DNA from: Shigella phage SSP1
Strand: one strand, 5' to 3'
Sequence record: KY963424
DNA: 64,000 bases
Shown: positions 18,921-31,090 of the stretch, piece by piece
Numbering within the stretch: position 1 is the stretch's first letter
Layout: each line of letters starts with the position of its first letter
Made by a program: the position numbers and the translations under genes
The notes under the pieces: generated by a model
What the model saw: only the letters and a program-made list of their open reading frames with translations
The model's database searches: none
Told to the model about the DNA's origin: nothing

Positions 18921-19261
18921 CGTTATTAAAAATGTATGTTATAATAATCTCATAGATTAACAATAACTCTTATTGTGAACTCTAGGGGCGATGATTATTA
19001 CAACTCTATTTGCGTCTGTGCTATAGCGGCTAGTCTTAGCGCGGGCCAATATTAGAGTTCTTCCGTAATACTCACGCGCCCCACGAGGAATCTCACATGA
19101 AATGGGGGATCATTTACTTTTAAAACATACGAATATATTTAAAGGCAATATTTGTATTCAAGATGATACACTTGTTGCCGCTCTCCATCTCTAGGATCAC
19201 ATACACTTTCCTAGAAACTCCAGAGTTCTCACGAGATATCACACTTCTAGTGGGCGGTTCT

Positions 19262-19333
19262 CCTAAGTTTCTAGGAACATATACTAGGCGGTTAATACAG
19301 GGCGGTTATGGGGAGGGCGGTTATTTCTAGACA
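19262..19333 (+). repeat. four direct copies of GGCGGTT(A/C)
   Basis: GGCGGTT at 19263, 19297, 19311, 19326. Confidence 0.7.
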
Positions 19334-19366
19334 ACATTTTTTGAAAACACATTTTCAGAAATTATT

Positions 19367-19972
19367 GTCGGATTTGCACACTGACATAAGTTTAAAAACT
19401 GGTCGGATTTGCACAATTGCCTAAGTTTTTAGGAACATATAATCTCCTGAAAATGCCAGCATTATTTCGGGCCGAAGGCCCATGGTTGCCTGAGTTTTTA
19501 GAGCCACAGAAATTTTCACTTGTCAAGCTATTTTGCCCCATTTAGCAAATAAAATTTTACTTTATCTCCACTAATCTCAAATTAACCCAAATCTTCTCAA
19601 CTCTTCCCCAAAATCCCCACAAATCAGGTGCTCCGCACCAAACATGCGCCCCTCTAGCTTCCCCCCCCCCCCTAATTTTCTCTCGCTCTCTCAACTTCTC
19701 CCCAAACCCACACAATCACACACCCTCTCATCGAAGTCACAAAAATATTCCTGAAACCATAAATCTGTCTCCTAGTAAACTCGTGTCGGATTTGCACATA
19801 CCCCACAGGATTCGAACGCAGTTCGAGATTGCTGGAGTTTTTGGGAAAATTCATTGTCGGATTTGCACACTATAAAAATTTTTCGGGTCGGATTTGCACA
19901 CTACCAAAAATTGTCGGATTCGCACATACACGCCCGCACGTAACACCCGTGGAGCAATGTCGGTTTTGCACA
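19367..19972 (+). repeat. dispersed array of seven copies of 14-mer GTCGGATTTGCACA
   Basis: Exact copies at 19367, 19402, 19785, 19856, 19887; one-mismatch copies at 19913 and 19959; same orientation. Confidence 0.85.
19661..19672 (+). repeat. C12 homopolymer within a G-depleted C/A/T-rich tract
   Basis: Twelve consecutive C; surrounding 19560-19780 has about 6 percent G on + strand. Confidence 0.85.
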
Positions 19973-20002
19973 AAAGCGCAGGGCAATTGCCCTGCGCTAA
20001 AT

Positions 20003-20160
20003 ACGAATGATAATAAGAATCATTCTCATTTAAAAAGCGGAATGAGAATGATAATAATTCGCATTTAGAAAGTGAAATGAGAATCAATCTCATTTAAAAA
20101 GTGGAATGATTCTCATTTAGATAGTGGAATGCAAATGATAATGATTCGCATTTAAGAACG
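20003..20160 (+). repeat. tandem array of degenerate AT-rich palindromic repeats (AATGAGAAT...ATTCTCATT / TGATAAT cores)
   Basis: About five tandem units each ending CATTTA(R)AAAG; extra copy at 20491-20512; resembles Fur-box-like GATAAT arrays. Confidence 0.6.
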
Positions 20161-20161
20161 G

Positions 20162-20295
20162 AAGTGAGAAACACTGTTATTTAAGTTATCCACAGACTTA
20201 TCAACAGCACGATTTGACTTGACAAAACCCTAGCCATTTTGAAGCGTTATTAACAGACTTATCCACAGCTTATCCTACTGTATAAATATACAGTA
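20162..20295 (+). repeat. left arm of about 135-bp imperfect inverted repeat carrying DnaA boxes
   Basis: Reverse complement of 23553-23686 aligns with few mismatches; TTATCCACA at 20186-20194 and 20259-20267, TTATCAACA at 20198-20206. Confidence 0.8.
20276..20295. promoter_or_regulatory. LexA (SOS) box-like palindrome TACTGTATAAATATACAGTA
   Basis: 19 of 20 matches to E. coli LexA consensus TACTGTATATATATACAGTA. Confidence 0.55.
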
Positions 20296-20550
20296 TTCCT
20301 ACGCAGTGAATAATTCTAATATAGCGTTAAAACGCTCTCAAACGCATTCTAACGCGTTTAATTTTGGTGGGGATACTAAATCAAGGGCAAAATTGAAGGA
20401 GGCTTGAAAATTAGTTAGCGCGCTAACGATCACACAAGGCGACACGTAACACCCGAATCATTAGCAGGCTAACCATCGCGGGCGCGGTCAAATGAGAATG
20501 ATTATCATTTGAAAATTGGGGCACTTCCAGATAGTTGCGCCCCGTGATTA

Positions 20551-20745
20551 TTAGTCTGGTAGTCGATGCGTGATCTTTTCCTCCTCCCCATATGAGTCCA
20601 CCAAATACTTATAATAACCATCGTGATCATAAATCACTTTATCATATTCGCCACGCTCAACCGCTTGTCGGTTTTCCGGCGTATCGGGCACGTAAAAAAC
20701 ATCAACCATTGTACTAGTTTTGGTTACAACAATTTTATTGCTCAT
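20551..20745 (-). CDS. hypothetical protein (cassette gene 8)
   Basis: 64-aa ORF, GC-richer composition, last gene of minus-strand cassette. Confidence 0.45.
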   Translation of the reverse strand: MSNKIVVTKTSTMVDVFYVPDTPENRQAVERGEYDKVIYDHDGYYKYLVDSYGEEEKITHRLPD

Positions 20746-20855
20746 AATAACTCCCTAGTAAATATATTTTTGCCAATAGTGGCGAACGTTATCGCCCCCA
20801 GCGGAATCATTAGCGGCCTTACTATTACCAACGAAAGTATATAATCTCATTAGTA

Positions 20856-21017
20856 TTATTTTCCTTGCATTAATTTATATATAACGAACATTCCGCAAAA
20901 CTGCCCTAATATAGTGCAGACAACAAGGGATAACACAATATTGCCGATTGTGTTATAAATAACCATACCAACAATAAGGGATAACGCATATCCTAGCAAA
21001 GCAATATAAACAGCCAT
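20856..21017 (-). CDS. small two-TM membrane protein (cassette)
   Basis: ATG one nt after upstream stop; hydrophobic MAVYIALLGYALSLIVGMVIY and LSLVVCTILGQFCGMFVIY. Confidence 0.45.
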   Translation of the reverse strand: MAVYIALLGYALSLIVGMVIYNTIGNIVLSLVVCTILGQFCGMFVIYKLMQGK

Positions 21018-21018
21018 A

Positions 21019-21363
21019 TTATTTACCCATTTTTCGAAACGCTGTTTCAATACTATCAGCCGTGGATTGAATATATGCTCCTTTCATTATCAGGCGCTCG
21101 GTGCACACCTTACGGAAAATATTAATAAAATCATCCTCATTTTCTGCAATTAATGCTTCACCCATAACCTGAACGTCGCAAGCTGCAAAGGTTAAAAATT
21201 GAAACGCTAGTTCACGGGCAACGACCGCATTGATTTTATAATGCGCCTTACCCTCATAAATATTAATAACGCCCTTATATGCTGGCGAAAGCTGGTTTAA
21301 ATAGCTTGCTAATAATGCCGGGCGGCAGTTAGCAACAAAACGATTTCCCTCATAAATAACCAT
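21019..21363 (-). CDS. hypothetical protein (cassette)
   Basis: 114-aa ORF with GGGAGG RBS supplied by upstream small ORF. Confidence 0.55.
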   Translation of the reverse strand: MVIYEGNRFVANCRPALLASYLNQLSPAYKGVINIYEGKAHYKINAVVARELAFQFLTFAACDVQVMGEALIAENEDDFINIFRKVCTERLIMKGAYIQSTADSIETAFRKMGK

Positions 21364-21364
21364 T

Positions 21365-21490
21365 TTATAACCTCCCGATCAGATAGCCCGATAATAACAT
21401 AAAGATCCCCAGCGAAAGAGGATCATTCTTAAATAAGGTGGCGATAAAACCGCCAGCCATTGCAAGGGCAATAACAATAACGCTTTTCAT
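21365..21490 (-). CDS. small hydrophobic peptide (41 aa, cassette)
   Basis: ATGA overlap with upstream stop; sequence MKSVIVIALAMAGGFIATLF...; below track cutoff. Confidence 0.4.
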   Translation of the reverse strand: MKSVIVIALAMAGGFIATLFKNDPLSLGIFMLLSGYLIGRL

Positions 21491-21699
21491 AGTACCCCAC
21501 GAAACGCAGCGTAAAAGGTGGCAAAGTGCCTAACCGTTTCAAGGATCACGTTGCCGCGCTTGTCGAATTTCTTTTCAGTAACACGAAAAGCGTTTTTGTT
21601 ACGTGCTACATATTCGATTTTACAATCTGGACGCTCGAATGTGTTAGCATCCACCAGCTTAAAACCTTTCGAACGTGCAAGAGAAACGTTACGAATCAT
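21487..21699 (-). CDS. hypothetical protein (cassette)
   Basis: 70-aa ORF translationally coupled to neighbours. Confidence 0.5.
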   Translation of the reverse strand: MIRNVSLARSKGFKLVDANTFERPDCKIEYVARNKNAFRVTEKKFDKRGNVILETVRHFATFYAAFRGVL

Positions 21700-21701
21700 T
21701 T

Positions 21702-21881
21702 TTATTCTCCTTTACTATTCATGCAGCCCAGCAGATAAGAAAATGCAGCGATACCCGCGCCAATAATAACCATTGGTTTTGTGACTACTAAACCGCAATA
21801 ATCTTGAATGCCGTAAGCGGTGGCGAAAAGGGTCAAAATAGCGCCCAAGATACCCGCCAGAATAGCTCGAAAAATAACCAT
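21702..21881 (-). CDS. small two-TM membrane peptide (59 aa, cassette)
   Basis: GGGGAG RBS; MVIFRAILAGILGAILTLFATAYG...MVIIGAGIAAFSYLLG; below track cutoff. Confidence 0.45.
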   Translation of the reverse strand: MVIFRAILAGILGAILTLFATAYGIQDYCGLVVTKPMVIIGAGIAAFSYLLGCMNSKGE

Positions 21882-21931
21882 TTTTTAATACTCCCCTAGT
21901 TAGTGGGGCGAAAGTAACGCCCCGTTATTAA

Positions 21932-22162
21932 TTACATTAAGATAATTTTTGCAGCTTGTTTTTTGGTGCAATGTTCCGCCTTCAGGGTATCCAGCAAAAA
22001 GCCCGCTGTTTGTTGATCGATTTGATCATTATCATAAAGCGTCTGGATGGTGTTATAAGTTTTAGCAATGCCGTATTCTTGGACCATTTCTTGAATAATC
22101 CAGCGATTTGATACCCAGCCTTTACCAGTGAAAAGAGCGTCAGAAGAAGAAAAAGCAACCAT
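21932..22162 (-). CDS. hypothetical protein (cassette)
   Basis: 76-aa ORF on cassette strand. Confidence 0.5.
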   Translation of the reverse strand: MVAFSSSDALFTGKGWVSNRWIIQEMVQEYGIAKTYNTIQTLYDNDQIDQQTAGFLLDTLKAEHCTKKQAAKIILM

Positions 22163-22277
22163 TTTAAGCCTCCAAATTTTTGGGAAAATTTTCGACCGTC
22201 CTCAAACGGTGTAAAGGCATTATAACAAAAAAGGCCACCATAAAAGGCGACCTTTACAAAACTTTACAATAGGCTAG

Positions 22278-23267
22278 TTATTGCTCGTTTTCGGTGTTAT
22301 TGGTAAAAGTAGAAATATCGATACCTTTTACCATTTCATCGATCATCTCAGCGATGTTAAAACTTTGGACCATTTCCAACATTGCCGCTTCCATAGCCGC
22401 CCCCGCTACCGCTTTCGCTTTCTGGTTACTCGGGGCGTACTGGTCAACCGCTACACTCAGCAGGTTAGCGATCACTACACGACCAACCGGCGTATCAATA
22501 TAGCCTTTGATCATGAACGGTGCTTTTTTAGCCGCTACTTTCGTGATTTGAGTTAGTGCAATTTTACCCGCTTCCAGTTTTGCAGCGTTTACAACGGCAG
22601 ACTTATTGGCGGCAACGATGTTAGCAATCTTGGTCATAGTGTTTTTTCCTTTATTTTCAGTAGTTTGAGTGTGAACGCTTTTAGTGTTAGAATTTACAGC
22701 ATGTTTTTCTATATTGCCAATACTTTCTTCCCTTTCGAAAGAAAATCCGGCGTCAACAATATCGCCGTCATATACCCGATTATATAACTCCGACGGTAGC
22801 AAAAAATTACCGTTATCATCAAAGGCCATTATAGCCGCAAAACGATACCCATCAGAATCCGACCGATTCCAGCCAACTGATAAATAACGCCAAAATGAAT
22901 CAAGAAAATTTTCTACGTCATAAAGATCATTATCATTGGCCTCATAGTTTTCTATTGAAAAAACTTCTAAGCCCGCCCCAGTATCATAGGCTTTTACTGT
23001 GTTGCCTTTTACGATTATGAAATCAGTATCCGGCCCCCGACTAGTGAGTAATTGATAATCCTGATTATACAAAACAAGCGTTGCCCCTTGCTTATATAAC
23101 GGTAGAAAACTATTCATATTATAAGCATCATAAGCATCAAAAAAGTTTTGATGAATAGTTTCAATATTGAAAACAAAATGTTTAATGCTGGTGGTCCTGC
23201 TACCATCCAGCAGGTTACGCAGCGCACCTTTTAAGACGGTTGCGTTATCTGGTTTATATAGCCTCAT
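22278..23267 (-). CDS. hypothetical 329-aa protein (first and largest cassette gene)
   Basis: Long ORF with RBS GAGGAGG; N-terminal Asp/Tyr-rich domain and Ala/Lys-rich helical C-terminal half; no motif I recognise. Confidence 0.6.
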   Translation of the reverse strand: MRLYKPDNATVLKGALRNLLDGSRTTSIKHFVFNIETIHQNFFDAYDAYNMNSFLPLYKQGATLVLYNQDYQLLTSRGPDTDFIIVKGNTVKAYDTGAGLEVFSIENYEANDNDLYDVENFLDSFWRYLSVGWNRSDSDGYRFAAIMAFDDNGNFLLPSELYNRVYDGDIVDAGFSFEREESIGNIEKHAVNSNTKSVHTQTTENKGKNTMTKIANIVAANKSAVVNAAKLEAGKIALTQITKVAAKKAPFMIKGYIDTPVGRVVIANLLSVAVDQYAPSNQKAKAVAGAAMEAAMLEMVQSFNIAEMIDEMVKGIDISTFTNNTENEQ

Positions 23268-23552
23268 TTGTTGGCCTCCTCGTTAATCGGTGAGTGAATG
23301 ATAAGGGTAATTTTCTAGTATAGGCAAAGATTATTTTACTTTTTTATTTTCCTTGCCTAGTGCCTAATTTTATGCTAACCGCGCAGCGGTGTAATAAAGA
23401 GCAAAACACGGCGAAGCCACCAGGGCGCCGCATTGCCGCCACCTGGCCAACGTGTTGGGCCTTTACTTTAATATTACCCCGCAGCGTTTAGCTCGTTAGA
23501 AAGCGTTTTAGGCGGCCTAAAATTGATTGCAGTCGTTAACACTGCCTTTCTA

Positions 23553-23572
23553 CCCTGTATATTTATACAGTA
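23553..23572. promoter_or_regulatory. LexA box-like palindrome (CTGTATATTTATACAG core)
   Basis: CTGT-N8-ACAG with AT spacer, 17 of 20 to LexA consensus; inverted copy of the site at 20276-20295. Confidence 0.5.
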
Positions 23573-23686
23573 GGATAACCTGTGGATAACTCTGTGTAAA
23601 AGTCCCCATATCGCCGCCTATTGTGTCAAATTATTTTGTGCTGTGGATAACGTTGTGGATAACTTAAATGATAGTGGTTCTCACTT
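23553..23686 (+). repeat. right arm of inverted repeat carrying DnaA boxes
   Basis: TGTGGATAA at 23581-23589, 23642-23650, 23654-23662; reverse complement matches 20162-20295. Confidence 0.8.
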
Positions 23687-23696
23687 ATGCCGATAG

Positions 23697-23765
23697 TTTC
23701 TTATAGTTATTATTATAATGGTGATGATTACATATAGCTATTATTATAGTGGTGATGATTTCATA
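23697..23765 (+). repeat. AT-rich direct repeats (two copies of about 31 bp)
   Basis: AGTTATTATTATAATGGTGATGATTACATAT and AGCTATTATTATAGTGGTGATGATTTCATAT in tandem inside a 350-bp AT-rich non-coding stretch. Confidence 0.75.
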
Positions 23766-24045
23766 TAGTTATTATTTCTCATTAATTTATAAGTATATTA
23801 TATATCATGAAATAGTTAGTTGGCTAATGAGATTTTCCGTGATTAATAGTCTGCTAATAGTTCAGGCCGTTACAATCCACCAGCATGATTATCATCCTAG
23901 CAATTATTAGTCTGCTATCTTTCCGATGCATACTAACAAATAAAAGTCAATTAATTAATTTTATAAAATAAGTCATTTGATCTTGATTTTTAAAAGTCAA
24001 GACCTTTTCCAACTATTTTTCAATTTTGCGTTTGTTAATGATTTG

Positions 24046-24285
24046 TTAAGTCGAAAATAGGCGGCCTAAAACGCCCCAGAACGCAATAAAGTTTTTAGCC
24101 ATCCCATCATAAGGGGATATGCCGTTTATCGCTGCCACGAGGTTTTTGGATTTTGTCAAGTAGGGCAGGGCAAATATAAATGAAAAAATTACTTGCCTAT
24201 TTGCTTTGTTTTGTGGTATTCGCGCGCCCGTTTCTTTTAATTTTGGGCCGTCGCCGGACGTGGTGCGGAAAACTGTATTAGCCAT
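24046..24285 (-). CDS. hypothetical protein (doubtful)
   Basis: 79-aa minus-strand ORF without clear RBS or promoter. Confidence 0.25.
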   Translation of the reverse strand: MANTVFRTTSGDGPKLKETGARIPQNKANRQVIFSFIFALPYLTKSKNLVAAINGISPYDGMAKNFIAFWGVLGRLFST

Positions 24286-24286
24286 A

Positions 24287-24314
24287 TTGCTAATAATTTT
24301 GATATAATATAATA
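24287..24314 (+). promoter_or_regulatory. sigma70 promoter (TTGCTA-N16-TATAAT)
   Basis: -35 24287-24292, -10 24309-24314, upstream of HNH gene with AGGAG RBS. Confidence 0.5.
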
Positions 24315-24342
24315 ACCAAATGAAACTAATAGGAGAATACTA

Positions 24343-24684
24343 ATGATTGAACTAACAAAAGATATTGATTTAGAAACCGTACTAGATAACCTTTACTATG
24401 ATGAAACTAGTCCTAGTTGCCTACGGTGGAAAGTATCCCGCCCCGGTTGCGCCCTTCATGGGGTAGCAGGTACTAAACGGAAGGATGGCTATTGGTCTGT
24501 TCAACTAAATAAAGAGCGTTATCTTGCGCATCGTATTGTGTGGTTACTATTTAATTATAAAATAGATAGCAAACTAGTAATTGATCATATTGATCGTAAT
24601 CCTAGTAACAATTTTATTGATAACTTACGGTTAGTAACTCAAGCCGAAAACAACCAAAATAAAGGAGAGTATAGAAAGGCGTAA
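24343..24684 (+). CDS. HNH homing endonuclease
   Basis: LAHRIVWLLF...IDHIDRNPSNNFIDNLRLVTQAENN HNH_3 motif; AT-rich relative to neighbours. Confidence 0.75.
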   Translation: MIELTKDIDLETVLDNLYYDETSPSCLRWKVSRPGCALHGVAGTKRKDGYWSVQLNKERYLAHRIVWLLFNYKIDSKLVIDHIDRNPSNNFIDNLRLVTQAENNQNKGEYRKA

Positions 24685-24804
24685 AATTTACATTTCTTTA
24701 CAAATATAAGGTTGCGCCTTTTTCGTTATTTGTTATTATTTATCTCGTAGGGCGGCAATGACGAACTACACGGCGGGAAGTTTACCGCCGCGCTCTTTAA
24801 AAAT

Positions 24805-24828
24805 TGGGTATATCTTAAAGCCTATCGG
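24805..24828 (+). repeat. left copy of 24-bp inverted repeat TGGGTATATCTTAAAGCCTA(T/C)CGG
   Basis: Reverse complement of 25075-25098 with one mismatch. Confidence 0.8.
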
Positions 24829-24862
24829 CGGTAAACTTATTACATTATAAGGAATCGACGAT

Positions 24863-25066
24863 ATGAAACAAACTTTATTGATCACTGGTAAACCTAGCAA
24901 GGCACTGGATAGCAAAACAAAAAATTTATTGACAGTAGCGCAAAGATCGGTAAAATATCGATTTGAGCAGTACAAGAAAGGCCGCCAGCAAGGTTTAGAA
25001 ATGATCTGGCGAAATATTATGATCGACCTGAAGGAAAATCATAAAAAACTGCAAAAAATAGTTTGA
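24863..25066 (+). CDS. hypothetical basic 67-aa protein flanked by inverted repeats
   Basis: ORF with AAGGAA RBS lying between the two 24-bp repeat copies. Confidence 0.45.
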   Translation: MKQTLLITGKPSKALDSKTKNLLTVAQRSVKYRFEQYKKGRQQGLEMIWRNIMIDLKENHKKLQKIV

Positions 25067-25074
25067 CAACATAG

Positions 25075-25098
25075 CCGGTAGGCTTTAAGATATACCCA
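25075..25098 (-). repeat. right copy of 24-bp inverted repeat
   Basis: CCGGTAGGCTTTAAGATATACCCA is reverse complement of left copy. Confidence 0.8.
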
Positions 25099-25296
25099 GT
25101 TCGATAAGAGCGATAACTTGATACAATTTGACGGTCGGTACTTACCATAATGTGCCCCGCCCCCTAACTGGGATATAGCGGCCCGCGTGGAGTTCCTTAA
25201 ATTGATTTTATAATGGCGAGCGGATTTTTTCTTATTACCTGTTATTTTCCAGCAGGTAATGCGGAACAATCCCCTAAATAACTTGGAGTTTATACC

Positions 25297-25548
25297 ATGA
25301 AAAACGTTATTACCGCGCCTAAAATTGGTCAATCTGTTTTCATCCCTTTCGTTACTAAAACGGATGAATTAACCGGAAAAGCCGAACGTATTAAAGGCGC
25401 GGCGCTCATGCCGTTCGATACAATCGATGCGGTATACGCTGAAACAGAACGCAGTAACAACGGCAAGCCGATTTATAACGTTCGCGTTAAATCTGGCGAC
25501 GTTGTAAAGGTTGTTCAACGCAACGAAAAATGGGAAGCCGTTTTATAA
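25297..25548 (+). CDS. hypothetical pre-early protein
   Basis: ORF preceded by conserved leader CCCCTAAATAACTTGGAGTTTATACC. Confidence 0.55.
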   Translation: MKNVITAPKIGQSVFIPFVTKTDELTGKAERIKGAALMPFDTIDAVYAETERSNNGKPIYNVRVKSGDVVKVVQRNEKWEAVL

Positions 25549-25562
25549 TTTAGTGTTAACTT

Positions 25563-25590
25563 TATATGCCCCAGTAGTTCGGGGCATATA
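25563..25590 (+). other. GC-cored hairpin without U-tract (pre-early intergenic punctuation)
   Basis: 10-bp stem TATATGCCCC/GGGGCATATA with 8-nt loop. Confidence 0.6.
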
Positions 25591-25646
25591 ACGATTAACA
25601 TTATGTTAATCTTATCCCTTAAATTAAATTAATTGGAGTTTATATC

Positions 25647-26054
25647 ATGACTAACGTTAAAGCCGCAAAATTCACCTGGAACGAAGAAAACACCCAAAAA
25701 GCTGTTACCATGTATCAGCAGTTAATCAATGAAAACGGATTAGAATTCGCAAACAGCGACGGCCTGAAAGAGATTGCGAAAGCAGTGGGCGCGACTTCTC
25801 CCGTGTCAGTTCGTTCGAAATTGACCAGCGCGAAAGCCTATCAAAAAAGCGATAAGCCTCGCAAGGTTGGCGGCGGTAGCTCAATCCGCAAGGCTCATTA
25901 TGTGCGAGTAATTGCAAGACACGCCATCGATTCCGGCATTATCAAAGACGCCGATGATCTGGCAAGCCTTGAAAGCGCGAAGCTGGAAACGCTGGACGCC
26001 GTGGCGCAGTTGTTAGGCGTTGCCGATGAGGTGAAACAAGCCGCAGGCGAATAA
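25647..26054 (+). CDS. hypothetical pre-early protein
   Basis: ORF preceded by leader CCTTAAATTAAATTAATTGGAGTTTATATC. Confidence 0.55.
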   Translation: MTNVKAAKFTWNEENTQKAVTMYQQLINENGLEFANSDGLKEIAKAVGATSPVSVRSKLTSAKAYQKSDKPRKVGGGSSIRKAHYVRVIARHAIDSGIIKDADDLASLESAKLETLDAVAQLLGVADEVKQAAGE

Positions 26055-26062
26055 ATTTAATT

Positions 26063-26088
26063 AGTGGGGATTATTCCCCACTATTTTC
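26063..26088 (+). terminator. hairpin / possible terminator
   Basis: Stem AGTGGGGA/TCCCCACT loop TTAT followed by ATTTTCC. Confidence 0.5.
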
Positions 26089-26109
26089 CCCTTGATTGGA
26101 GTTTTTAAA

Positions 26110-26307
26110 ATGATCTTTTACCCCACTGAATCGCTCATTCTAGGCTTATTTATTATGGCGGCCTCGTTATTGTTCGCATATTTTCAAAATGATTTAGATT
26201 CGTATTATTTTAAACGCAAATCTAAGTTAGCGAAGCGTTTGGGCCTGATTTGTTTTATTGCCGCCGTTGCTTGTGGTGTTAGTTCTAGCCTGATGCCGAT
26301 TAGTTAA
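26110..26307 (+). CDS. small two-TM membrane protein (pre-early)
   Basis: ATG after TTGGAGTTTTTAAA leader; hydrophobic LILGLFIMAASLLFAYF and LGLICFIAAVACGV. Confidence 0.5.
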   Translation: MIFYPTESLILGLFIMAASLLFAYFQNDLDSYYFKRKSKLAKRLGLICFIAAVACGVSSSLMPIS

Positions 26308-26319
26308 ATATTGCAAATT

Positions 26320-26345
26320 ATAACGCCTATTATTGGAGGCGTTAT
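26320..26345 (+). other. intergenic hairpin
   Basis: Stem ATAACGCCT/AGGCGTTAT. Confidence 0.55.
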
Positions 26346-26347
26346 AT

Positions 26348-26364
26348 TTGGCAATATTTGCCAA
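26348..26364. promoter_or_regulatory. 17-bp palindrome TTGGCAA-TAT-TTGCCAA (operator-like)
   Basis: Perfect 7-bp half-sites, located about 40 bp upstream of A1 start. Confidence 0.4.
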
Positions 26365-26404
26365 TAACAAACGTTTTTTAATCCCTTTAATGGAGTTTAT
26401 TATT

Positions 26405-28075
26405 ATGATTATTTCCGCAGAAAAACAAACCGTTATCCTGAAGCTGGCCGCTGACTTTAATTTCTATGGTAAACGTCTGCGCGCCACTAAATTGGAAGTA
26501 TGTGACGATATTTCGAAAGCGGTATACGATACACCGAAACACTCTACCGCGATTTGTGATTGGCTGGAAGCAAATAAACCAGCGAAACCGAAAACGGCAA
26601 AAGTAGCAAAAGCTATTAAAAACGACGAGCGCCCCGAGGCGGCTGGAATTATTTCTAGCACGGTGGAACAGTGGGAAGTAAAGCAGGGCAAACGCTTTAT
26701 TATTACATCGATTCAGAATAATACTTTCCCGCATAAAAACTTTTTGGCCTCACTGGAACAATACGCTAAATTTATCGGCGCTGATTTACTTGTTTCTAAG
26801 TATATTTATAACAAAAACGGCTTTCAAAATGGTGAAGGCGCGGACGGTGTAAAATATGATTCCGCGTTTGATAAGTATATTTGCAGCAAAAACGTGTTTT
26901 TAAATAACCGCCGTTTTGCTTTCATGGCTGAAATTAATGTTCTGCCCACTGCAGACTATCCGCTGTCTGGATTCGCAGAAACTGCAACGGCTCTCAATCT
27001 TGAAGGTCTGGCAATTGGTCACGCTAAAATCACCGCCGAAAGCGTGCCAGCTCTCAAAGGTGAAGTAGTACGCCGCATGTACTCAACCGGAACGGCAACA
27101 CTCAAAAACTACATTCAGCAGAAAGCAGGACAGAAAGCGGAAGCACTGCATAATTTCGGTGCGCTGATTGTTGAGTTCGACGAAGACGGTGAGTTTTTTG
27201 TGCGCCAGCTTGAAACGATGGACGAAAGCGGCATGTTTTACGATTTGAATATTTGCGCGACCCCCGCCGGATGTTATGAAACATCGGGGCATGTTTTAGG
27301 TTTACAATATGGCGACATACACGCCGAAAAACTTGATGAGGAGTGCGCCGCAGCGTCATGGGGTCATGGTGATACTTATGGGCTAGTGGATATTCTTAAA
27401 CCTAAATATCAGTTTGTGCATGACGTTCACGATTTTACATCACGCAACCATCACAACCGCGCTTCAGGTGTATTTCTAGCGAAACAGTATGCAGCCGGAC
27501 GTGACAAGGTTCTGGATGATCTCATCGACACCGGGCGCGTGCTGGAATCAATGGAACGTGATTTTAGTCAAACGATCATTGTCGAATCTAATCACGATCT
27601 GGCGCTATCCCGTTGGCTTGATGATCGCAATGCTAACATTAAAGACGATCCAGCCAACGCGGAACTGTATCACCGCCTTAATGCTGCGATTTACGCGGCA
27701 ATCGGTAATCATGACGATACTTTCAACGTGCTGGATTATGCGCTGCGTACGGTTGCAGGTTGCGAGTTTAACGCGATTTTCCTGACAACTGACCAATCGT
27801 TTAAAATCGCAGGCATTGAATGCGGCGTACACGGTCACAACGGCATTAACGGGAGCCGTGGCAATCCGAAGCAATTCAAGAAATTGGGCAAGTTAAACAC
27901 GGGGCACACCCACACCGCCAGCATTTACGGCGGCGTTTATACCGCTGGCGTCGCTGGTTCCCTCGATATGGGCTATAACGTTGGCGCGTCAAGCTGGACG
28001 CAAACGCATTTAATTACCTATGCAAACGGCCAGCGCACTTTGATTGACTTTAAAAACGGCAAATTTTTCGCATAA
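26405..28075 (+). CDS. A1: A1 pre-early protein (metallophosphatase-fold, host DNA degradation/takeover)
   Basis: 556 aa from ATG 26405 as recalled for T5 A1; phosphoesterase motifs GDIHAE and GHGD; conserved pre-early leader. Confidence 0.75.
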   Translation: MIISAEKQTVILKLAADFNFYGKRLRATKLEVCDDISKAVYDTPKHSTAICDWLEANKPAKPKTAKVAKAIKNDERPEAAGIISSTVEQWEVKQGKRFIITSIQNNTFPHKNFLASLEQYAKFIGADLLVSKYIYNKNGFQNGEGADGVKYDSAFDKYICSKNVFLNNRRFAFMAEINVLPTADYPLSGFAETATALNLEGLAIGHAKITAESVPALKGEVVRRMYSTGTATLKNYIQQKAGQKAEALHNFGALIVEFDEDGEFFVRQLETMDESGMFYDLNICATPAGCYETSGHVLGLQYGDIHAEKLDEECAAASWGHGDTYGLVDILKPKYQFVHDVHDFTSRNHHNRASGVFLAKQYAAGRDKVLDDLIDTGRVLESMERDFSQTIIVESNHDLALSRWLDDRNANIKDDPANAELYHRLNAAIYAAIGNHDDTFNVLDYALRTVAGCEFNAIFLTTDQSFKIAGIECGVHGHNGINGSRGNPKQFKKLGKLNTGHTHTASIYGGVYTAGVAGSLDMGYNVGASSWTQTHLITYANGQRTLIDFKNGKFFA

Positions 28076-28082
28076 TTAAATT

Positions 28083-28110
28083 TATAAGCGGGGTATATAC
28101 CCCGCTTATA
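28083..28110 (+). other. GC-cored hairpin without U-tract
   Basis: Stem TATAAGCGGGG/CCCCGCTTATA around TATATA loop. Confidence 0.6.
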
Positions 28111-28142
28111 TCCCTTATTAAATTAATTGGAGTTTTATAACT

Positions 28143-28535
28143 ATGAAAAAGCAAAATATCCCATTCGATCGCGCTCAATCTTCCATCGTTCTGGTTTATT
28201 CTAATGGTGAGCGGTATCACGTTGAGGCCGGTCACGTTGTTGATGATTTAATCGACTTTAATGACGCTTTACAGATTACTACTTTCGCCTATACGCAAGG
28301 CCGCGCAAGTAGTCACATCAAGGCCGCAGGCGTTTATGTTGATACGGTGAAGCAGGAAACGATTATCATCGACGCCGTAAAATCCGGTCTAGCCTTTGCA
28401 GTTGTCGCGCCTTGTCCAGCTTGCTTTGATGATCAGCTATCGAGCGCAAAGGTATATATCTGCGCGGGTGTTCGTTCTCATGTATCCGGCGAAGATATTA
28501 GTTTCATCGCTGATGCGTTGGCTTATGGTCTTTGA
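28143..28535 (+). CDS. A2: A2-like pre-early protein (assignment by position and size)
   Basis: 130-aa ORF between A1 and dmp with conserved leader TTAAATTAATTGGAGTTTTATAACT. Confidence 0.45.
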   Translation: MKKQNIPFDRAQSSIVLVYSNGERYHVEAGHVVDDLIDFNDALQITTFAYTQGRASSHIKAAGVYVDTVKQETIIIDAVKSGLAFAVVAPCPACFDDQLSSAKVYICAGVRSHVSGEDISFIADALAYGL

Positions 28536-28548
28536 TAGTTGATTTATT

Positions 28549-28575
28549 ATTGCCCGCTGATAAATAGCGGGCAAT
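28549..28575 (+). other. GC-cored hairpin without U-tract
   Basis: 10-bp stem ATTGCCCGCT/AGCGGGCAAT, loop GATAAAT. Confidence 0.6.
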
Positions 28576-28615
28576 GCTGGATAAACTAAATCCCTTTAAT
28601 GGAGAACGTAACAAA

Positions 28616-29350
28616 ATGAATCAAGTTAAAATGAATATTACCCGTAATTTCCCGCATATTTCCCGCGTCATGATTTGGGATCTGGACGGAACAATCATTA
28701 ATTCATTCCATCGTGTCGCGCCTTGCTTTGATAGCGAGGGTAATTTAGATTTAAATAAGTATAAGAATGAAGCGTGTAAGCATCATTTAATAATGCAAGA
28801 TACCTTATTGCCTTTGGTTGAATATATGCGCCAGTGCATGAATGACGCAAATACTTTAAACATTATTTGTACCGCTCGACTAATGAGCAAATCGGACTAT
28901 TATTATTTGCGCAAACAAGGCTTACGCGGTCGTGGGGATAGTAATATCCGCGTGTTTTCCCGCGATACGCTGCATAAATATTTTGAAGCTGATAAAGTTA
29001 GCGAAATATACCACAGTAAGGACGCAGTTTATAAATCGTATTATTTTGAGCTATTCAAACAACTATATCCGAACGCTGATTTTACAATGATTGATGATCA
29101 TAAAGGTGTATTATCAGCGGCAGCGTCATACGGATTTAAAACGCTGGACGCGCAAGCCGTTAATGATATTCTATCAATCGGCGTGGCATTGATAGGCGGA
29201 ACCTTTATTGATGAATCTCTCGATGATGATAATGATTATCAGTTCCTAGCGGACCGCTTAAAACTATGTTGGGAAAGCATGACCGAAGAAGAACGCGCAG
29301 AATATAGTTGCAGCCCGCAACAATATATTGAGAAATTAAAAGTTGCGTAA
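28616..29350 (+). CDS. dmp: 5-prime-deoxyribonucleotidase (HAD family)
   Basis: 244 aa from ATG 28616 as recalled for T5 Dmp; HAD motif I WDLDGTI. Confidence 0.75.
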   Translation: MNQVKMNITRNFPHISRVMIWDLDGTIINSFHRVAPCFDSEGNLDLNKYKNEACKHHLIMQDTLLPLVEYMRQCMNDANTLNIICTARLMSKSDYYYLRKQGLRGRGDSNIRVFSRDTLHKYFEADKVSEIYHSKDAVYKSYYFELFKQLYPNADFTMIDDHKGVLSAAASYGFKTLDAQAVNDILSIGVALIGGTFIDESLDDDNDYQFLADRLKLCWESMTEEERAEYSCSPQQYIEKLKVA

Positions 29351-29526
29351 TAATTAAAATTGAAATAGTTTCATCCTGTAATTAAAAATGGTTGCAGGGT
29401 GAAACAGTTAGCAGGGTAATAGTCACGGGGGTGGCGGTTAGCAGACTAAGTATTTTCGCCCTAGCCACTGGACTCACCCACGCGTACGTAATCCAAAGAA
29501 TTTGGCAAAAGTCATTTTAGCGCTAA

Positions 29527-30024
29527 TTAATTATGATTTGCAAACTCACCGTGATAGTGCTCCCTGGCTTTTCTAAGTTCTTTTTCAGCCTGCTCAAGAG
29601 TTTTAAAAGTTCCCACGGTAATCCTATTGCCATTTACACGTAATTTTGCTTCGAACTTTTCCTCACCACGTTTATATACTCCCTTAACTCCGGTAGACTC
29701 ATTCTTCCATCCCGAAGAGTTTTTGCCATTCTCTGCATTTGTTGCTTTACGCAGGTTATTCCATCTATTGTTGAAAGGATCTTGATCTTTATGATCAATG
29801 AGAAACTCACTCGGATCTTCTCCTGTCATGTATAGATATGCTACCCGATGGGCTTTATATAACCCATTACTGCCCATTGATAGGGATATTCCTGAGCTGT
29901 TTCTACTGCCTGCTGGCTTACCTTTACGACTTCCCGAGTTCCAAGTAAAGATACCAGTTCCAGGATCATAATCAAATTTCTTCTGGTATTCTGCTAAGGG
30001 CAGTAGAGGTTTATGATTTGCCAT
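29527..30024 (-). CDS. HNH homing endonuclease with AP2-like domain
   Basis: AHRVAYLYMTGEDPSEFLIDHKDQDPFNNRWNNLRKATNAEN; 165 aa, paralog of 5634-6131. Confidence 0.75.
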   Translation of the reverse strand: MANHKPLLPLAEYQKKFDYDPGTGIFTWNSGSRKGKPAGSRNSSGISLSMGSNGLYKAHRVAYLYMTGEDPSEFLIDHKDQDPFNNRWNNLRKATNAENGKNSSGWKNESTGVKGVYKRGEEKFEAKLRVNGNRITVGTFKTLEQAEKELRKAREHYHGEFANHN

Positions 30025-30229
30025 CTATCTTGGATCTCCTCCGAGAACTTCTTGAACCGTCATTCCACTCCCGCTCAAACTCCGCACGTTTCTCATCAAA
30101 CTTCCGCTCCCTTTCCGCAATCTCCCGCGATACTTCCGCAATATATTTACGATGCTTGTTGATTGCCGCAGTCGTCCCGAAAACTCCCGCGAGTATCCCG
30201 ATAATAAAAGCAATTACAATACTAAACAT
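30011..30229 (-). CDS. small single-pass membrane protein with charged C-terminus
   Basis: TM segment FSIVIAFIIGILAGVFGTTAAI then Arg/Glu-rich tail; coupled to upstream ORF. Confidence 0.5.
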   Translation of the reverse strand: MFSIVIAFIIGILAGVFGTTAAINKHRKYIAEVSREIAERERKFDEKRAEFEREWNDGSRSSRRRSKIDGKS

Positions 30230-30416
30230 CTAATTCCCTCTCAATTTGCAGAATACGGGTGCTATCACAACGTTGCAGTAGTACTAGCTTTTCTAGAATA
30301 ACTTGTTGTTGTTTCACCTGAGCTTCTAGAGTTTTTAGGCGGAGATACACGATACGAGAGACAATGAGGATTACCCAGACTAATATTACTATTAGTGTAA
30401 CTGCCACCTCCATCAT
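30222..30416 (-). CDS. small single-pass membrane protein
   Basis: TM segment VAVTLIVILVWVILIVSRIVYL; ATGA overlap with upstream ORF. Confidence 0.5.
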   Translation of the reverse strand: MMEVAVTLIVILVWVILIVSRIVYLRLKTLEAQVKQQQVILEKLVLLQRCDSTRILQIERELDV

Positions 30417-30520
30417 TTACGTTTCTCCAATAATAAGGTCTCAATTCTAGCTAAGTGATTATCTAAAATACACTGTCCAATAATCACAATCCCTAGTAGT
30501 GTAATAATTACCCATTCCAT
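30413..30520 (-). CDS. small membrane peptide (35 aa)
   Basis: TAATG and ATGA coupling to both neighbours; MEWVIITLLGIVIIGQCIL; below track cutoff. Confidence 0.4.
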   Translation of the reverse strand: MEWVIITLLGIVIIGQCILDNHLARIETLLLEKRK

Positions 30521-30711
30521 TAAATCCACCCCGCCATAGCTGCTAACCAAAAGCCTACGAAAATAAAGAATAAGATAGTTCCGAACCCAAAACTATTTAT
30601 CCAGCTATCATACACCTCTCCACGTCTGCTCTTTCTTTTATTTGACATATCTTTCATGCTCCTGTAAATGTTGTATTTGGAATATTTTATATTTTGTGCA
30701 TAACCAACCAT
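30520..30711 (-). CDS. small C-terminally anchored membrane protein
   Basis: Basic N-terminus, C-terminal TM segment FGFGTILFFIFVGFWLAAMAGWI. Confidence 0.5.
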   Translation of the reverse strand: MVGYAQNIKYSKYNIYRSMKDMSNKRKSRRGEVYDSWINSFGFGTILFFIFVGFWLAAMAGWI

Positions 30712-30823
30712 GCTTGTGACTTCCTAGAGGACTTCTACTTTTCTTACATAGTGGTTTCTGCCAATATACCATCCAAGAAATAAAAAATTTAGTTTACTTG
30801 GATGTCTTTTTGCTTTATACTAA

Positions 30824-31090
30824 TTACAGGTAGTTAGATTGCTCTAGTTTAAATTTACAATCACCATATTTAAGGTCAAACTGACTGAGATCCCACCACC
30901 CAAACTTAGTGCGGAGCTGTACTACTGGAAAGCGATCTCCCTTAATACGAACTTTTTGAACCTTGAGGCCGTAATGTTCTTCTCCAGCACCACCAAAAGA
31001 TTTTACAAATCCAGTACAAAATGGTTTGGGAGCAGGTGCACAACCAGATAACATAACTGTGGTAACTAGTGCAATCACAAACTTTTTCAT
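30824..31090 (-). CDS. llp: Llp-like lytic-conversion lipoprotein (receptor-blocking)
   Basis: Signal peptide with lipobox LSGC; divergent from and adjacent to the receptor-binding protein gene; own strong early promoter. Confidence 0.65.
   Translation of the reverse strand: MKKFVIALVTTVMLSGCAPAPKPFCTGFVKSFGGAGEEHYGLKVQKVRIKGDRFPVVQLRTKFGWWDLSQFDLKYGDCKFKLEQSNYL

Follow-up and report, generated by a model that had tools for sequence, protein, structure and literature searches.

Conserved hairpins and a shared ribosome-binding leader as candidate RNA stability or processing signals in the pre-early A2-A1-dmp operon of a T5-like phage

We analysed a stretch of 64,000 nucleotides of Shigella phage SSP1 (KY963424; hereafter the window), and found that the cistrons of its pre-early A2-A1-dmp operon are all bracketed by hairpins, with a hairpin foot 1-18 nt upstream of a ribosome-binding leader that precedes each of the six genes. 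The stems vary in sequence among related phages while their pairing is kept, and at most positions they lack the U-tract of an intrinsic terminator. We give about an even chance to the interpretation that these hairpins punctuate the sense RNA between cistrons as stability or processing signals, combined with a common translation-initiation leader. Termination by the hairpins is possible, at most to a weak degree.

Over positions 25100-29400 the window shares 96.8% identity with the left terminal repeat (the first-step-transfer DNA) of Salmonella phage SPC35, and this segment has matches in 515 phage records. Judged by sequence similarity, the window is that of a T5-like phage nearest to SPC35, with the A2-A1-dmp pre-early operon of the left arm at 25.1-29.4 kb, downstream of the promoter P-D/E20. 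In a comparison with three T5 records the gene order was syntenic with T5.001-T5.008, with all genes on the plus strand, and assignments from PHROGs and Pfam were concordant with the identities derived from synteny. The predicted promoter occupies the position of the annotated T5 P-D/E20, between T5.008 and T5.007. Inside the operon the promoter scan found no site with at least 10 of 12 matches, and the promoter count was not above that of shuffled sequences; all known promoters are located upstream of it. A preliminary description of this DNA, made from its letters, had called the genes pre-early and the transcript polycistronic; both terms suit homologues of T5.007, A2, T5.005, A1, T5.002 and dmp that follow P-D/E20 with no internal promoter-like site. 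A recent T5 preprint likewise treats the genes as a single operon, and gives P-H22, P-D/E20 and the gene 011 promoter as the only characterised pre-early promoters.

Hairpins were far more frequent in the operon than expected by chance. We defined a perfect hairpin by at least 9 bp, at least four GC pairs and a loop of 3-10 nt; five were observed in 25200-29420, whereas 200 dinucleotide shuffles gave 0.04 on average and never more than one. The operon also holds five of the 20 hairpins of at least 8 bp in the entire window. Each stem comprises 9-12 perfect bp, 4-6 of them GC pairs, and closes a loop of 4-8 nt; the core starts 7-17 nt after the stop codon, and the intergenic segments gave folding z-scores of -3.3 to -5.8. 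All four hairpins reported in the preliminary description, here called HP1-HP4, were recovered, with perfect stems of 11, 10, 12 and 10 bp. That list proved incomplete, as it had overlooked the hairpins in the 5' untranslated region (5'UTR), after A2 and after dmp, the AU-rich second hairpins beside HP1 and HP2, and the interrupted lower stems of 19-22 bp of HP1, HP2, HP4 and the 5'UTR hairpin (Table 1). In the T5 annotation (AY587007) the orthologues of HP4 and of the hairpin after A2 are labelled 'palindrome A' and 'palindrome B', respectively, and the orthologue of the post-dmp hairpin 'putative rho-independent terminator'.

Table 1. Features of the pre-early operon and its surroundings. 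Positions refer to the window; SD, Shine-Dalgarno sequence.
Feature	Position	Strand	Details and basis
T5.008/hdi homologue	24863-25066	+	synteny
P-D/E20-like sigma-70 promoter (predicted)	25063-25091	+	TTGACA-17-TAAGAT; scan, 10/12 matches; would drive the six-cistron operon
Operon 5'UTR	~200 nt between promoter and T5.007 homologue	+	
5'UTR hairpin	25219-25275	+	core 25233-25261, 11 bp; extended stem 22 bp, interrupted (fold prediction)
Leader copy 1, T5.007 homologue	25268-25296	+	C-box 25271-25274; SD GGAG 25285-25288; ATG 25297
T5.007 homologue (DUF7177)	25297-25548	+	synteny, Pfam/PHROGs
HP1	25551-25611	+	perfect core 25562-25591, 11 bp; interrupted stem 25551-25603, 21 bp
HP1 alternative AU-rich second hairpin	25593-25611	+	
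Leader copy 2, A2	25614-25646	+	C-box 25616-25618; SD 25635-25638
A2, DNA-binding protein (phrog_1725)	25647-26054	+	synteny, PHROGs
Hairpin after A2	26062-26083	+	9 bp; tail AUUUUCC
Leader copy 3, T5.005 homologue	26087-26109	+	SD 26098-26101
T5.005 homologue, small membrane protein	26110-26307	+	synteny
HP2	26308-26364	+	perfect core 26319-26346, 10 bp; interrupted stem 26308-26357, 19 bp
HP2 second AU-rich hairpin	26348-26364	+	
Leader copy 4, A1	26381-26404	+	C-box 26383-26385; SD 26392-26395
A1, DNA transfer protein, 556 aa	26405-28075	+	synteny
HP3, after A1	28083-28110	+	perfect palindromic hairpin, 12 bp
Leader copy 5, T5.002 homologue	28110-28142	+	C-box 28112-28114; SD 28129-28132
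T5.002 homologue	28143-28535	+	synteny
HP4	28536-28588	+	core 28548-28576; perfect stem 28549-28575, 10 bp, 12 bp with G.U; interrupted stem 22 bp
Leader copy 6, dmp	28590-28615	+	C-box 28592-28594; SD 28601-28604
dmp, deoxynucleoside-5'-monophosphatase	28616-29350	+	synteny
Hairpin after dmp	29368-29405	+	17 bp, several G.U pairs, no U-tract; ~70 nt from physical DNA end

HP1 and HP2 have the layout X-core-X'-X in common. Their 3' flank X' has two possible partners: pairing with the upstream X would extend the main stem to 19-21 bp, and pairing with the downstream X would give the AU-rich second hairpin. This second hairpin covaries in the relatives My1 and L039. In a scan of 19000-31000 against Rfam 15 no match was found in the operon, and the sole match, a sub-threshold rliI (24 bits vs a gathering threshold of 45), lies outside it. 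A described RNA family was rejected as the identity of the hairpins for want of such a match.

We studied the conservation of the hairpins in 53 A1-encoding loci from IMG/VR together with T5, SPC35, Klebsiella phage Shiner, Proteus phage 1, a Vibrio phage and Bas33. Pairing of the stems amounted to 93-99% in about 35 relatives, and compensatory changes were present. In HP1, 99% of the cells were paired, four pairs were altered on both sides, and one pair occurred as CG, AU, GC and UA; the observed covariation was reached by none of 500 shuffles. HP2 was 98.4% paired with changes on both sides in nine of its 19 pairs, and none of 500 shuffles reached the observed value on any measure. HP4 was 93% paired, with many U.G pairs, and the 5'UTR hairpin had covarying pairs among 26 relatives. 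For the post-dmp hairpin the MAFFT alignment mixed two allele families, and its covariation is described from the sequences rather than counted. Hence, the conservation of stem pairing in related phages, on which the preliminary description had staked its proposal, was borne out.

Not only single pairs but whole stems were exchanged. Unrelated stems have been swapped in at fixed positions: the sites behind A2 and dmp have two alleles each, the site behind A1 has at least three and the one behind T5.002 at least four; many relatives, for instance, carry an unrelated hairpin of 19-20 bp at the post-A2 position. The flanks of the hairpins remained nearly invariant despite this replacement. The arrangement is retained in Sugarlandvirus, Novosibvirus and the Vibrio T5-like phages, down to 34% identity of A1.

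The main hairpin was more stable on the plus than on the minus strand at all six positions (e.g. -21.5 vs -15.9 and -22.9 vs -16.4 kcal/mol), and the plus strand had 128 G.U pairs vs 44 on the minus strand. The interrupted stem of HP4 is rich in G.U pairs of the sense strand. These results point to a sense RNA as the conserved entity, and not to a DNA palindrome or a minus-strand signal. Like known mRNA stabilisers, the hairpins thus form a stable structure of the sense transcript that is conserved as structure rather than as sequence.

The hairpins resemble intrinsic terminators in their GC-rich stems of 9-12 bp with small loops right after the stop codons, and differ from them in what follows the stem. 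The 8 nt after the stem contain 2-4 T at the operon hairpins of the window. In contrast, a count over the 8 nt that follow the last GC pair gives 5-7 T for eight canonical terminators located elsewhere in the window. The preliminary statement that T-runs are missing is therefore correct, with HP2 as the sole hairpin that has about 5 U or more in 8 nt when its tail is counted from the GC core. Among 142 unique intergenic sequences of the relatives, pooled over all six positions, five positions had means of 2.3-4.1 T in the 8 nt counted from the last GC pair. A terminator scan of the plus strand passed none of the operon hairpins, and gave one weak match inside the hairpin at 26062. The last hairpin lacks a U-tract as well, though read-through would be purposeless so close to the DNA end, which fits a function at the RNA end. 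The early region of T5 is annotated with terminator-promoter pairs instead.

RNA levels of the individual cistrons are available for the relative Bas33 (HildyBeyeler; MZ501074), whose operon has the same hairpins and leaders as the window. A 2026 preprint reports RNA-seq of this phage 20 min after infection, untreated and with daunorubicin, which prolongs pre-early expression (reads in the European Nucleotide Archive, PRJEB101990; Table 2). The profile along the operon was non-monotonic (down, down, up, down, up, down), and this pattern was alike in all four samples. Serial partial termination from one promoter alone is therefore insufficient to explain the levels. Upstream RNA exceeded downstream RNA at four of the five hairpin junctions, and the reverse was seen from 005 to A1. 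The log2 fold change in daunorubicin was -0.12 for 007 and +0.98 to +1.20 for A2, A1 and 002 (A1, +1.20), and such cistron-specific responses imply that the cistrons are not carried on one intact RNA. Together with the lack of an internal promoter, the Bas33 profile favours a transcript that is physically divided into segments differing in stability.

Table 2. RNA levels of pre-early genes of phage Bas33 20 min after infection (reads per kilobase per million, RPKM).
Gene	Infection 1	Infection 2	Daunorubicin 1	Daunorubicin 2
hdi	588	445	1113	1350
007	12444	11820	12579	11819
A2	2233	2621	5194	5220
005	788	1005	1170	1172
A1	1564	2463	4877	4974
003	492	716	1094	1193
002	1538	2521	4523	4328
dmp	1126	1424	1997	2439

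Internal promoters were considered as a source of the rises at A1 and T5.002, and were rejected when neither the scan nor manual inspection found any. The T5 record AY692264 lists a 'putative promoter' upstream of A1, which lacks a -10 that could be used at 16-18 nt spacing. A TTTAAT within the leader before A1 would, as a -10, start transcripts downstream of the Shine-Dalgarno sequence (SD). We also rejected a sigma-54 site in TTGGCAATATTTGCCAA, in which the GG-to-GC spacing is 2 nt short.

The same data bear on the alternative that the hairpins are leaky intrinsic terminators or attenuators, which we regard as rather unlikely. Each hairpin would then stop some of the polymerases, and a gradient from promoter-proximal to promoter-distal genes (T5.007 and A2 high, A1 and dmp lower) would result, with degenerate U-tracts tuning the efficiency. 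GC-cored stems of terminator size directly past the stop codons would suit this role, as would the tails that follow the GC core in HP2 (UUAUAUUU) and HP3 (UUAUAU), the label given to the post-dmp hairpin in T5 and the 2.3-5.6-fold drop in RPKM from 007 to A2 in Bas33. Real T-runs, moreover, occur on equivalent hairpins in My1, L039, Proteus phage 1 and the Vibrio phage. Yet leaky termination does not account for RNA that rises 2-4-fold from 005 to A1 and 3-4-fold from 003 to 002 with no detectable internal promoter, nor for cistrons that differ in their response to prolonged expression. In the sampled Tequintavirus, Epseptimavirus and Sugarlandvirus, furthermore, stems were replaced repeatedly without gaining a T-run at five of the six positions, while terminators with 5-7 T are found elsewhere in the same genomes.

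Several observations nevertheless weigh against stability or processing punctuation. The HP2 tail is U-rich from the GC core (6/8), interrupted by A, and the large drop from 007 to A2 is also compatible with partial termination at HP1. The true T-runs of My1, L039, Proteus phage 1 and the Vibrio phage, whose A1 proteins are 66%-34% identical, sit on several equivalent hairpins, and in the first three of these phages the same leader follows directly. Because distant relatives carry such T-runs, the elements may derive from terminators, and a weak terminating activity may persist in some of them. RNA of the 005 segment is scarce despite the HP2 that follows it, so that a 3' hairpin alone is no predictor of abundance, and both cistrons with low RNA, 005 and 003, are short. 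The RNA-seq evidence consists of gene-level counts at a single time point in a different phage. A typical RNase III substrate is longer than HP3 (12 bp) and the hairpin at 26062 (9 bp). In the literature searched we found no mapping of 5' or 3' ends of T5-like pre-early transcripts, and no report on the ribonuclease dependence of T5 transcripts. The preference of the preliminary description for processing or stability over termination is thus partly sustained, by covariation, sense-strand bias, the lack of U-tracts and the non-monotonic, cistron-specific RNA levels of Bas33, and is qualified by the tail of HP2 and the T-runs of distant relatives.

In the right-arm pre-early operon, on the minus strand, a canonical terminator at 22230-22255 is followed by TATAAT, and a hairpin without U-tract lies at 21905-21923 between the T5.012 and T5.013 homologues. 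Bas33 RNA fell about 5-fold across the hairpin without U-tract and about 1.3-fold across the canonical terminator.

The second half of each element is the leader. The pattern CCC[CT][TA]-N0-22-[AT]TGGAG occurs six times in the operon (at 25271, 25616, 26088, 26383, 28112 and 28592), which agrees with the six copies of the preliminary description, and the remainder of the window, both strands counted, has two more matches, against a shuffle mean of 0.058. In T5 early DNA (50 kb, or 100 kb of strand) it has about eight matches. The leader is concentrated in the operon, and is not unique to it. Its consensus consists of a C-box, (A)UCCC(U/C)U, 6-16 nt of A/U, and UGGAG(U), with the ATG 8-11 nt further on; the dmp copy diverges from the others after GGAG. 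The 5'UTR hairpin lies just upstream of the first leader, and in its extended stem GGAUU is paired with AAUCC of the first C-box.

The leaders are invariant across relatives at sites where adjacent positions vary, and in the A2 copy ATCCCTTAAATTAA is invariant among 23 relatives. Sugarlandvirus and Novosibvirus have recognisable forms of the type TTCCCTTTAA..AGGAGTT (e.g. TTCCCTTTAATTAGGAGTT), and the module can be recognised down to about 42% identity of A1. Some relatives have T5.003 or an HNH gene inserted between the post-A1 hairpin and the leader, and the leader then remains joined to T5.002. The inserted HNH gene (L015:5666-6275 and relatives, between A1 and the T5.002 homologue) has a hairpin of its own, CCTCCAATTAAT...ATTAATTGGAGG, that sequesters its own SD, a design unlike that of the resident cistrons.

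The start of dmp is annotated differently in two relatives: in SPC35 it is an ATG at 28574, inside the 3' arm of HP4, and in T5 it is at 28616, behind the SD of the shared leader. The longer SPC35 annotation is probably wrong.

RNAfold draws a weak pairing between C-box and SD (UCC:GGA). An anti-Shine-Dalgarno thermodynamic switch was rejected as the role of the C-box, because changing CCC to AAA in silico shifted the energy needed to expose the SD by -1.5 to +0.6 kcal/mol, in no uniform direction.

The position of the leader suggests a second alternative, in which hairpin and leader form one unit that serves the downstream cistron. The unit could be a cap-like 5' stabiliser or insulator with a ribosome standby or S1-loading site, or could expose a C-box bound by a trans-acting regulator, and would provide uniform or co-regulated translation of the six cistrons. 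We consider this doubtful, and slightly less probable than leaky termination. A hairpin foot stands close before every leader, including that of the first cistron, where the core of the 5'UTR hairpin closely follows no gene. The leader is invariant amid varying neighbouring sequence, is retained in Sugarlandvirus and Novosibvirus, and stays with T5.002 upon insertion of T5.003 or the HNH gene; in Bas33, T5.002 RNA is high without a hairpin between 003 and 002. The post-dmp hairpin, however, has no gene downstream, and the in-silico change of the C-box gave inconsistent changes in SD accessibility. Among the operon products, Pfam and PHROGs revealed no RNA-binding protein or nuclease as a candidate regulator, and assigned only domains of unknown function, a DNA-binding protein, a DNA transfer protein and a phosphatase. 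A downstream unit also overlaps with intercistronic punctuation of the sense RNA, and is not exclusive of it.

If the hairpins are stability or processing signals of the sense RNA, we infer the following course of events. Host RNA polymerase would transcribe the operon from P-H22 and P-D/E20 as a single RNA toward the DNA end, and the stem-loops would form in the sense RNA just past the footprint of the terminating ribosome. They would act post-transcriptionally by blocking 3'-to-5' exonucleases. Endonucleolytic cuts may occur in the single-stranded A/U-rich leader or in the extended stems of 19-22 bp, with RNase III and RNase E as candidate nucleases. Hairpins and cuts would thereby divide the polycistronic RNA into segments with separate half-lives, so that cistron levels become uncoupled from gene order. 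Each cistron would be offered an equivalent, unstructured ribosome-loading site by its leader, beside the hairpin foot, in which the C-box may take part.

A more specific and clearly improbable variant holds that the hairpin foot, the AUCCC(U/C)U C-box, the A/U spacer and UGGAGU together serve as the shared cis-acting target of one dedicated factor, a post-transcriptional regulator or a nuclease. This factor would come from the phage (and depend on A1 or A2) or be taken over from the host, and would shut off the whole pre-early set at once. The logic is comparable to that of T4 RegB, which cuts GGAG in early mRNAs. If true, it would give the classic and unexplained A1-dependent shut-off of pre-early protein synthesis a mechanism at the RNA level.

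A role of the DNA itself, as palindromic protein-binding or cruciform sites (e.g. for A2 or A1) or as cassette boundaries whose leader repeats promote recombination and thereby pre-early gene gain and loss, is the least probable of all: T5 annotators recorded two elements as plain palindromes, HP3 is a perfect palindrome, the HP1 flanks are near-invariant in sequence and indels (T5.003, the HNH gene, extra open reading frames between 007 and A2) sit between hairpin and leader, but stems that vary among sites and phages while pairing is retained argue against a sequence-specific DNA-binding protein, and the many G.U pairs of the sense strand would be A.C mismatches in a cruciform arm.

Such cassettes are known from T4-type phages as PeSLs (promoter-early stem-loops), which combine a stem-loop and an early promoter between small early genes (PMC2839356, PMC4122927). 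The elements of the T5-like operon are likewise composite conserved intergenic motifs, a stem-loop joined to an expression signal, repeated between small early genes and apparently located at indel boundaries. T5.003, the HNH gene and extra open reading frames were inserted between hairpin and leader in some relatives. In contrast to PeSLs, the conserved half is a ribosome-binding leader instead of an early promoter. The sigma-70 promoter that a PeSL joins to its stem-loop was absent: the promoter scan found no site with at least 10 of 12 matches in any leader, and manual inspection no usable -10/-35 upstream of A1.

Intercistronic punctuation of the sense RNA has its closest analogues in the early RNase III sites of T7 and in classical intercistronic stabiliser hairpins, to judge by arrangement. 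In the early region of T7, host RNA polymerase makes a polycistronic early RNA of several kb with the RNase III sites R0.3-R1.3. These stem-loops occupy nearly every intercistronic gap, a few tens of nt before the next ribosome-binding site, and consist of two stems flanking an internal loop. The T5-like hairpins are alike in their location between the cistrons of an early RNA made by the host polymerase, and the upstream piece would keep a 3' hairpin. The 5'UTR hairpin (22 bp), HP1 (21), HP2 (19) and HP4 (22, interrupted) have the size of RNase III substrates, roughly 20 bp or about two helical turns, and the post-dmp hairpin has 17 bp. HP3 and the hairpin at 26062, in contrast, are too short, and membership of the RNase III class therefore cannot be claimed. 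Furthermore, there is no sequence similarity, and the T5-like stems have a GC core with AU-rich feet.

The stabilisers of malE-malF (repetitive extragenic palindromes), Rhodobacter puf and pap, and the hairpins of T4 early and middle mRNAs, are likewise stable sense-strand hairpins 3' of a cistron without a U-tract. They are also associated with unequal steady-state levels of cistrons from one promoter, comparable to the four of five junctions in Bas33. The T5 stems differ in being site-specific rather than repeats and in being joined to a shared downstream leader, and the step from 005 to A1 runs in the opposite direction.

In the literature searched, we found no prior description of the systematic hairpin pattern, its conservation or the shared leader. 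It would be a control of a known kind not yet described for T5-like phages, in which two hairpins and one putative terminator had already been annotated in T5. The pre-early genes of T5 serve host takeover and the second step of DNA transfer, and what determines their amounts and their shut-off within minutes has been a question since the 1970s. If control at the RNA level is true, it would explain the unequal cistron levels in RNA-seq, and the shared leader would be a concrete handle on post-transcriptional shut-off. Designs for deletion or knock-down would then have to consider the elements, as removal of a hairpin could alter neighbouring cistrons. The elements are also compact natural 'insulator plus ribosome-binding site' parts that work with unmodified E. 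coli machinery.

The 5'UTR contains, besides its one covarying hairpin, a GC-rich block GTGCCCCGCCCCCTAACTGGGATATAGCGGCCCGCGTGGAG at 25153-25195, which has a predicted small stem and is kept in most Tequintavirus relatives and deleted in L027, L035 and L037. A put-like antitermination RNA was considered for this 200-nt 5'UTR, and hairpin and block gave no support for antitermination.

Further observations concern the surroundings of the operon. The T5 and SPC35 records stop about 123 nt past the dmp stop at 29350, whereas the window continues uninterrupted beyond about 29473 and hence derives from an assembly with the terminal repeat collapsed or permuted; the sequence beyond this point is DNA situated to the left of the right terminal repeat. 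Between the divergent pre-early promoters, an open reading frame of 113 aa is present at 24343-24684 on the plus strand, where T5 has an HNH endonuclease. On the minus strand, 19400-20350 and 23570-23800 contain clustered DnaA-box-like TTATCCACA motifs, tandem GTGCAAATCCGAC repeats and a G10 run; these are the counterparts of the non-coding repeat regions and of the injection-stop-signal area that have been discussed for T5.

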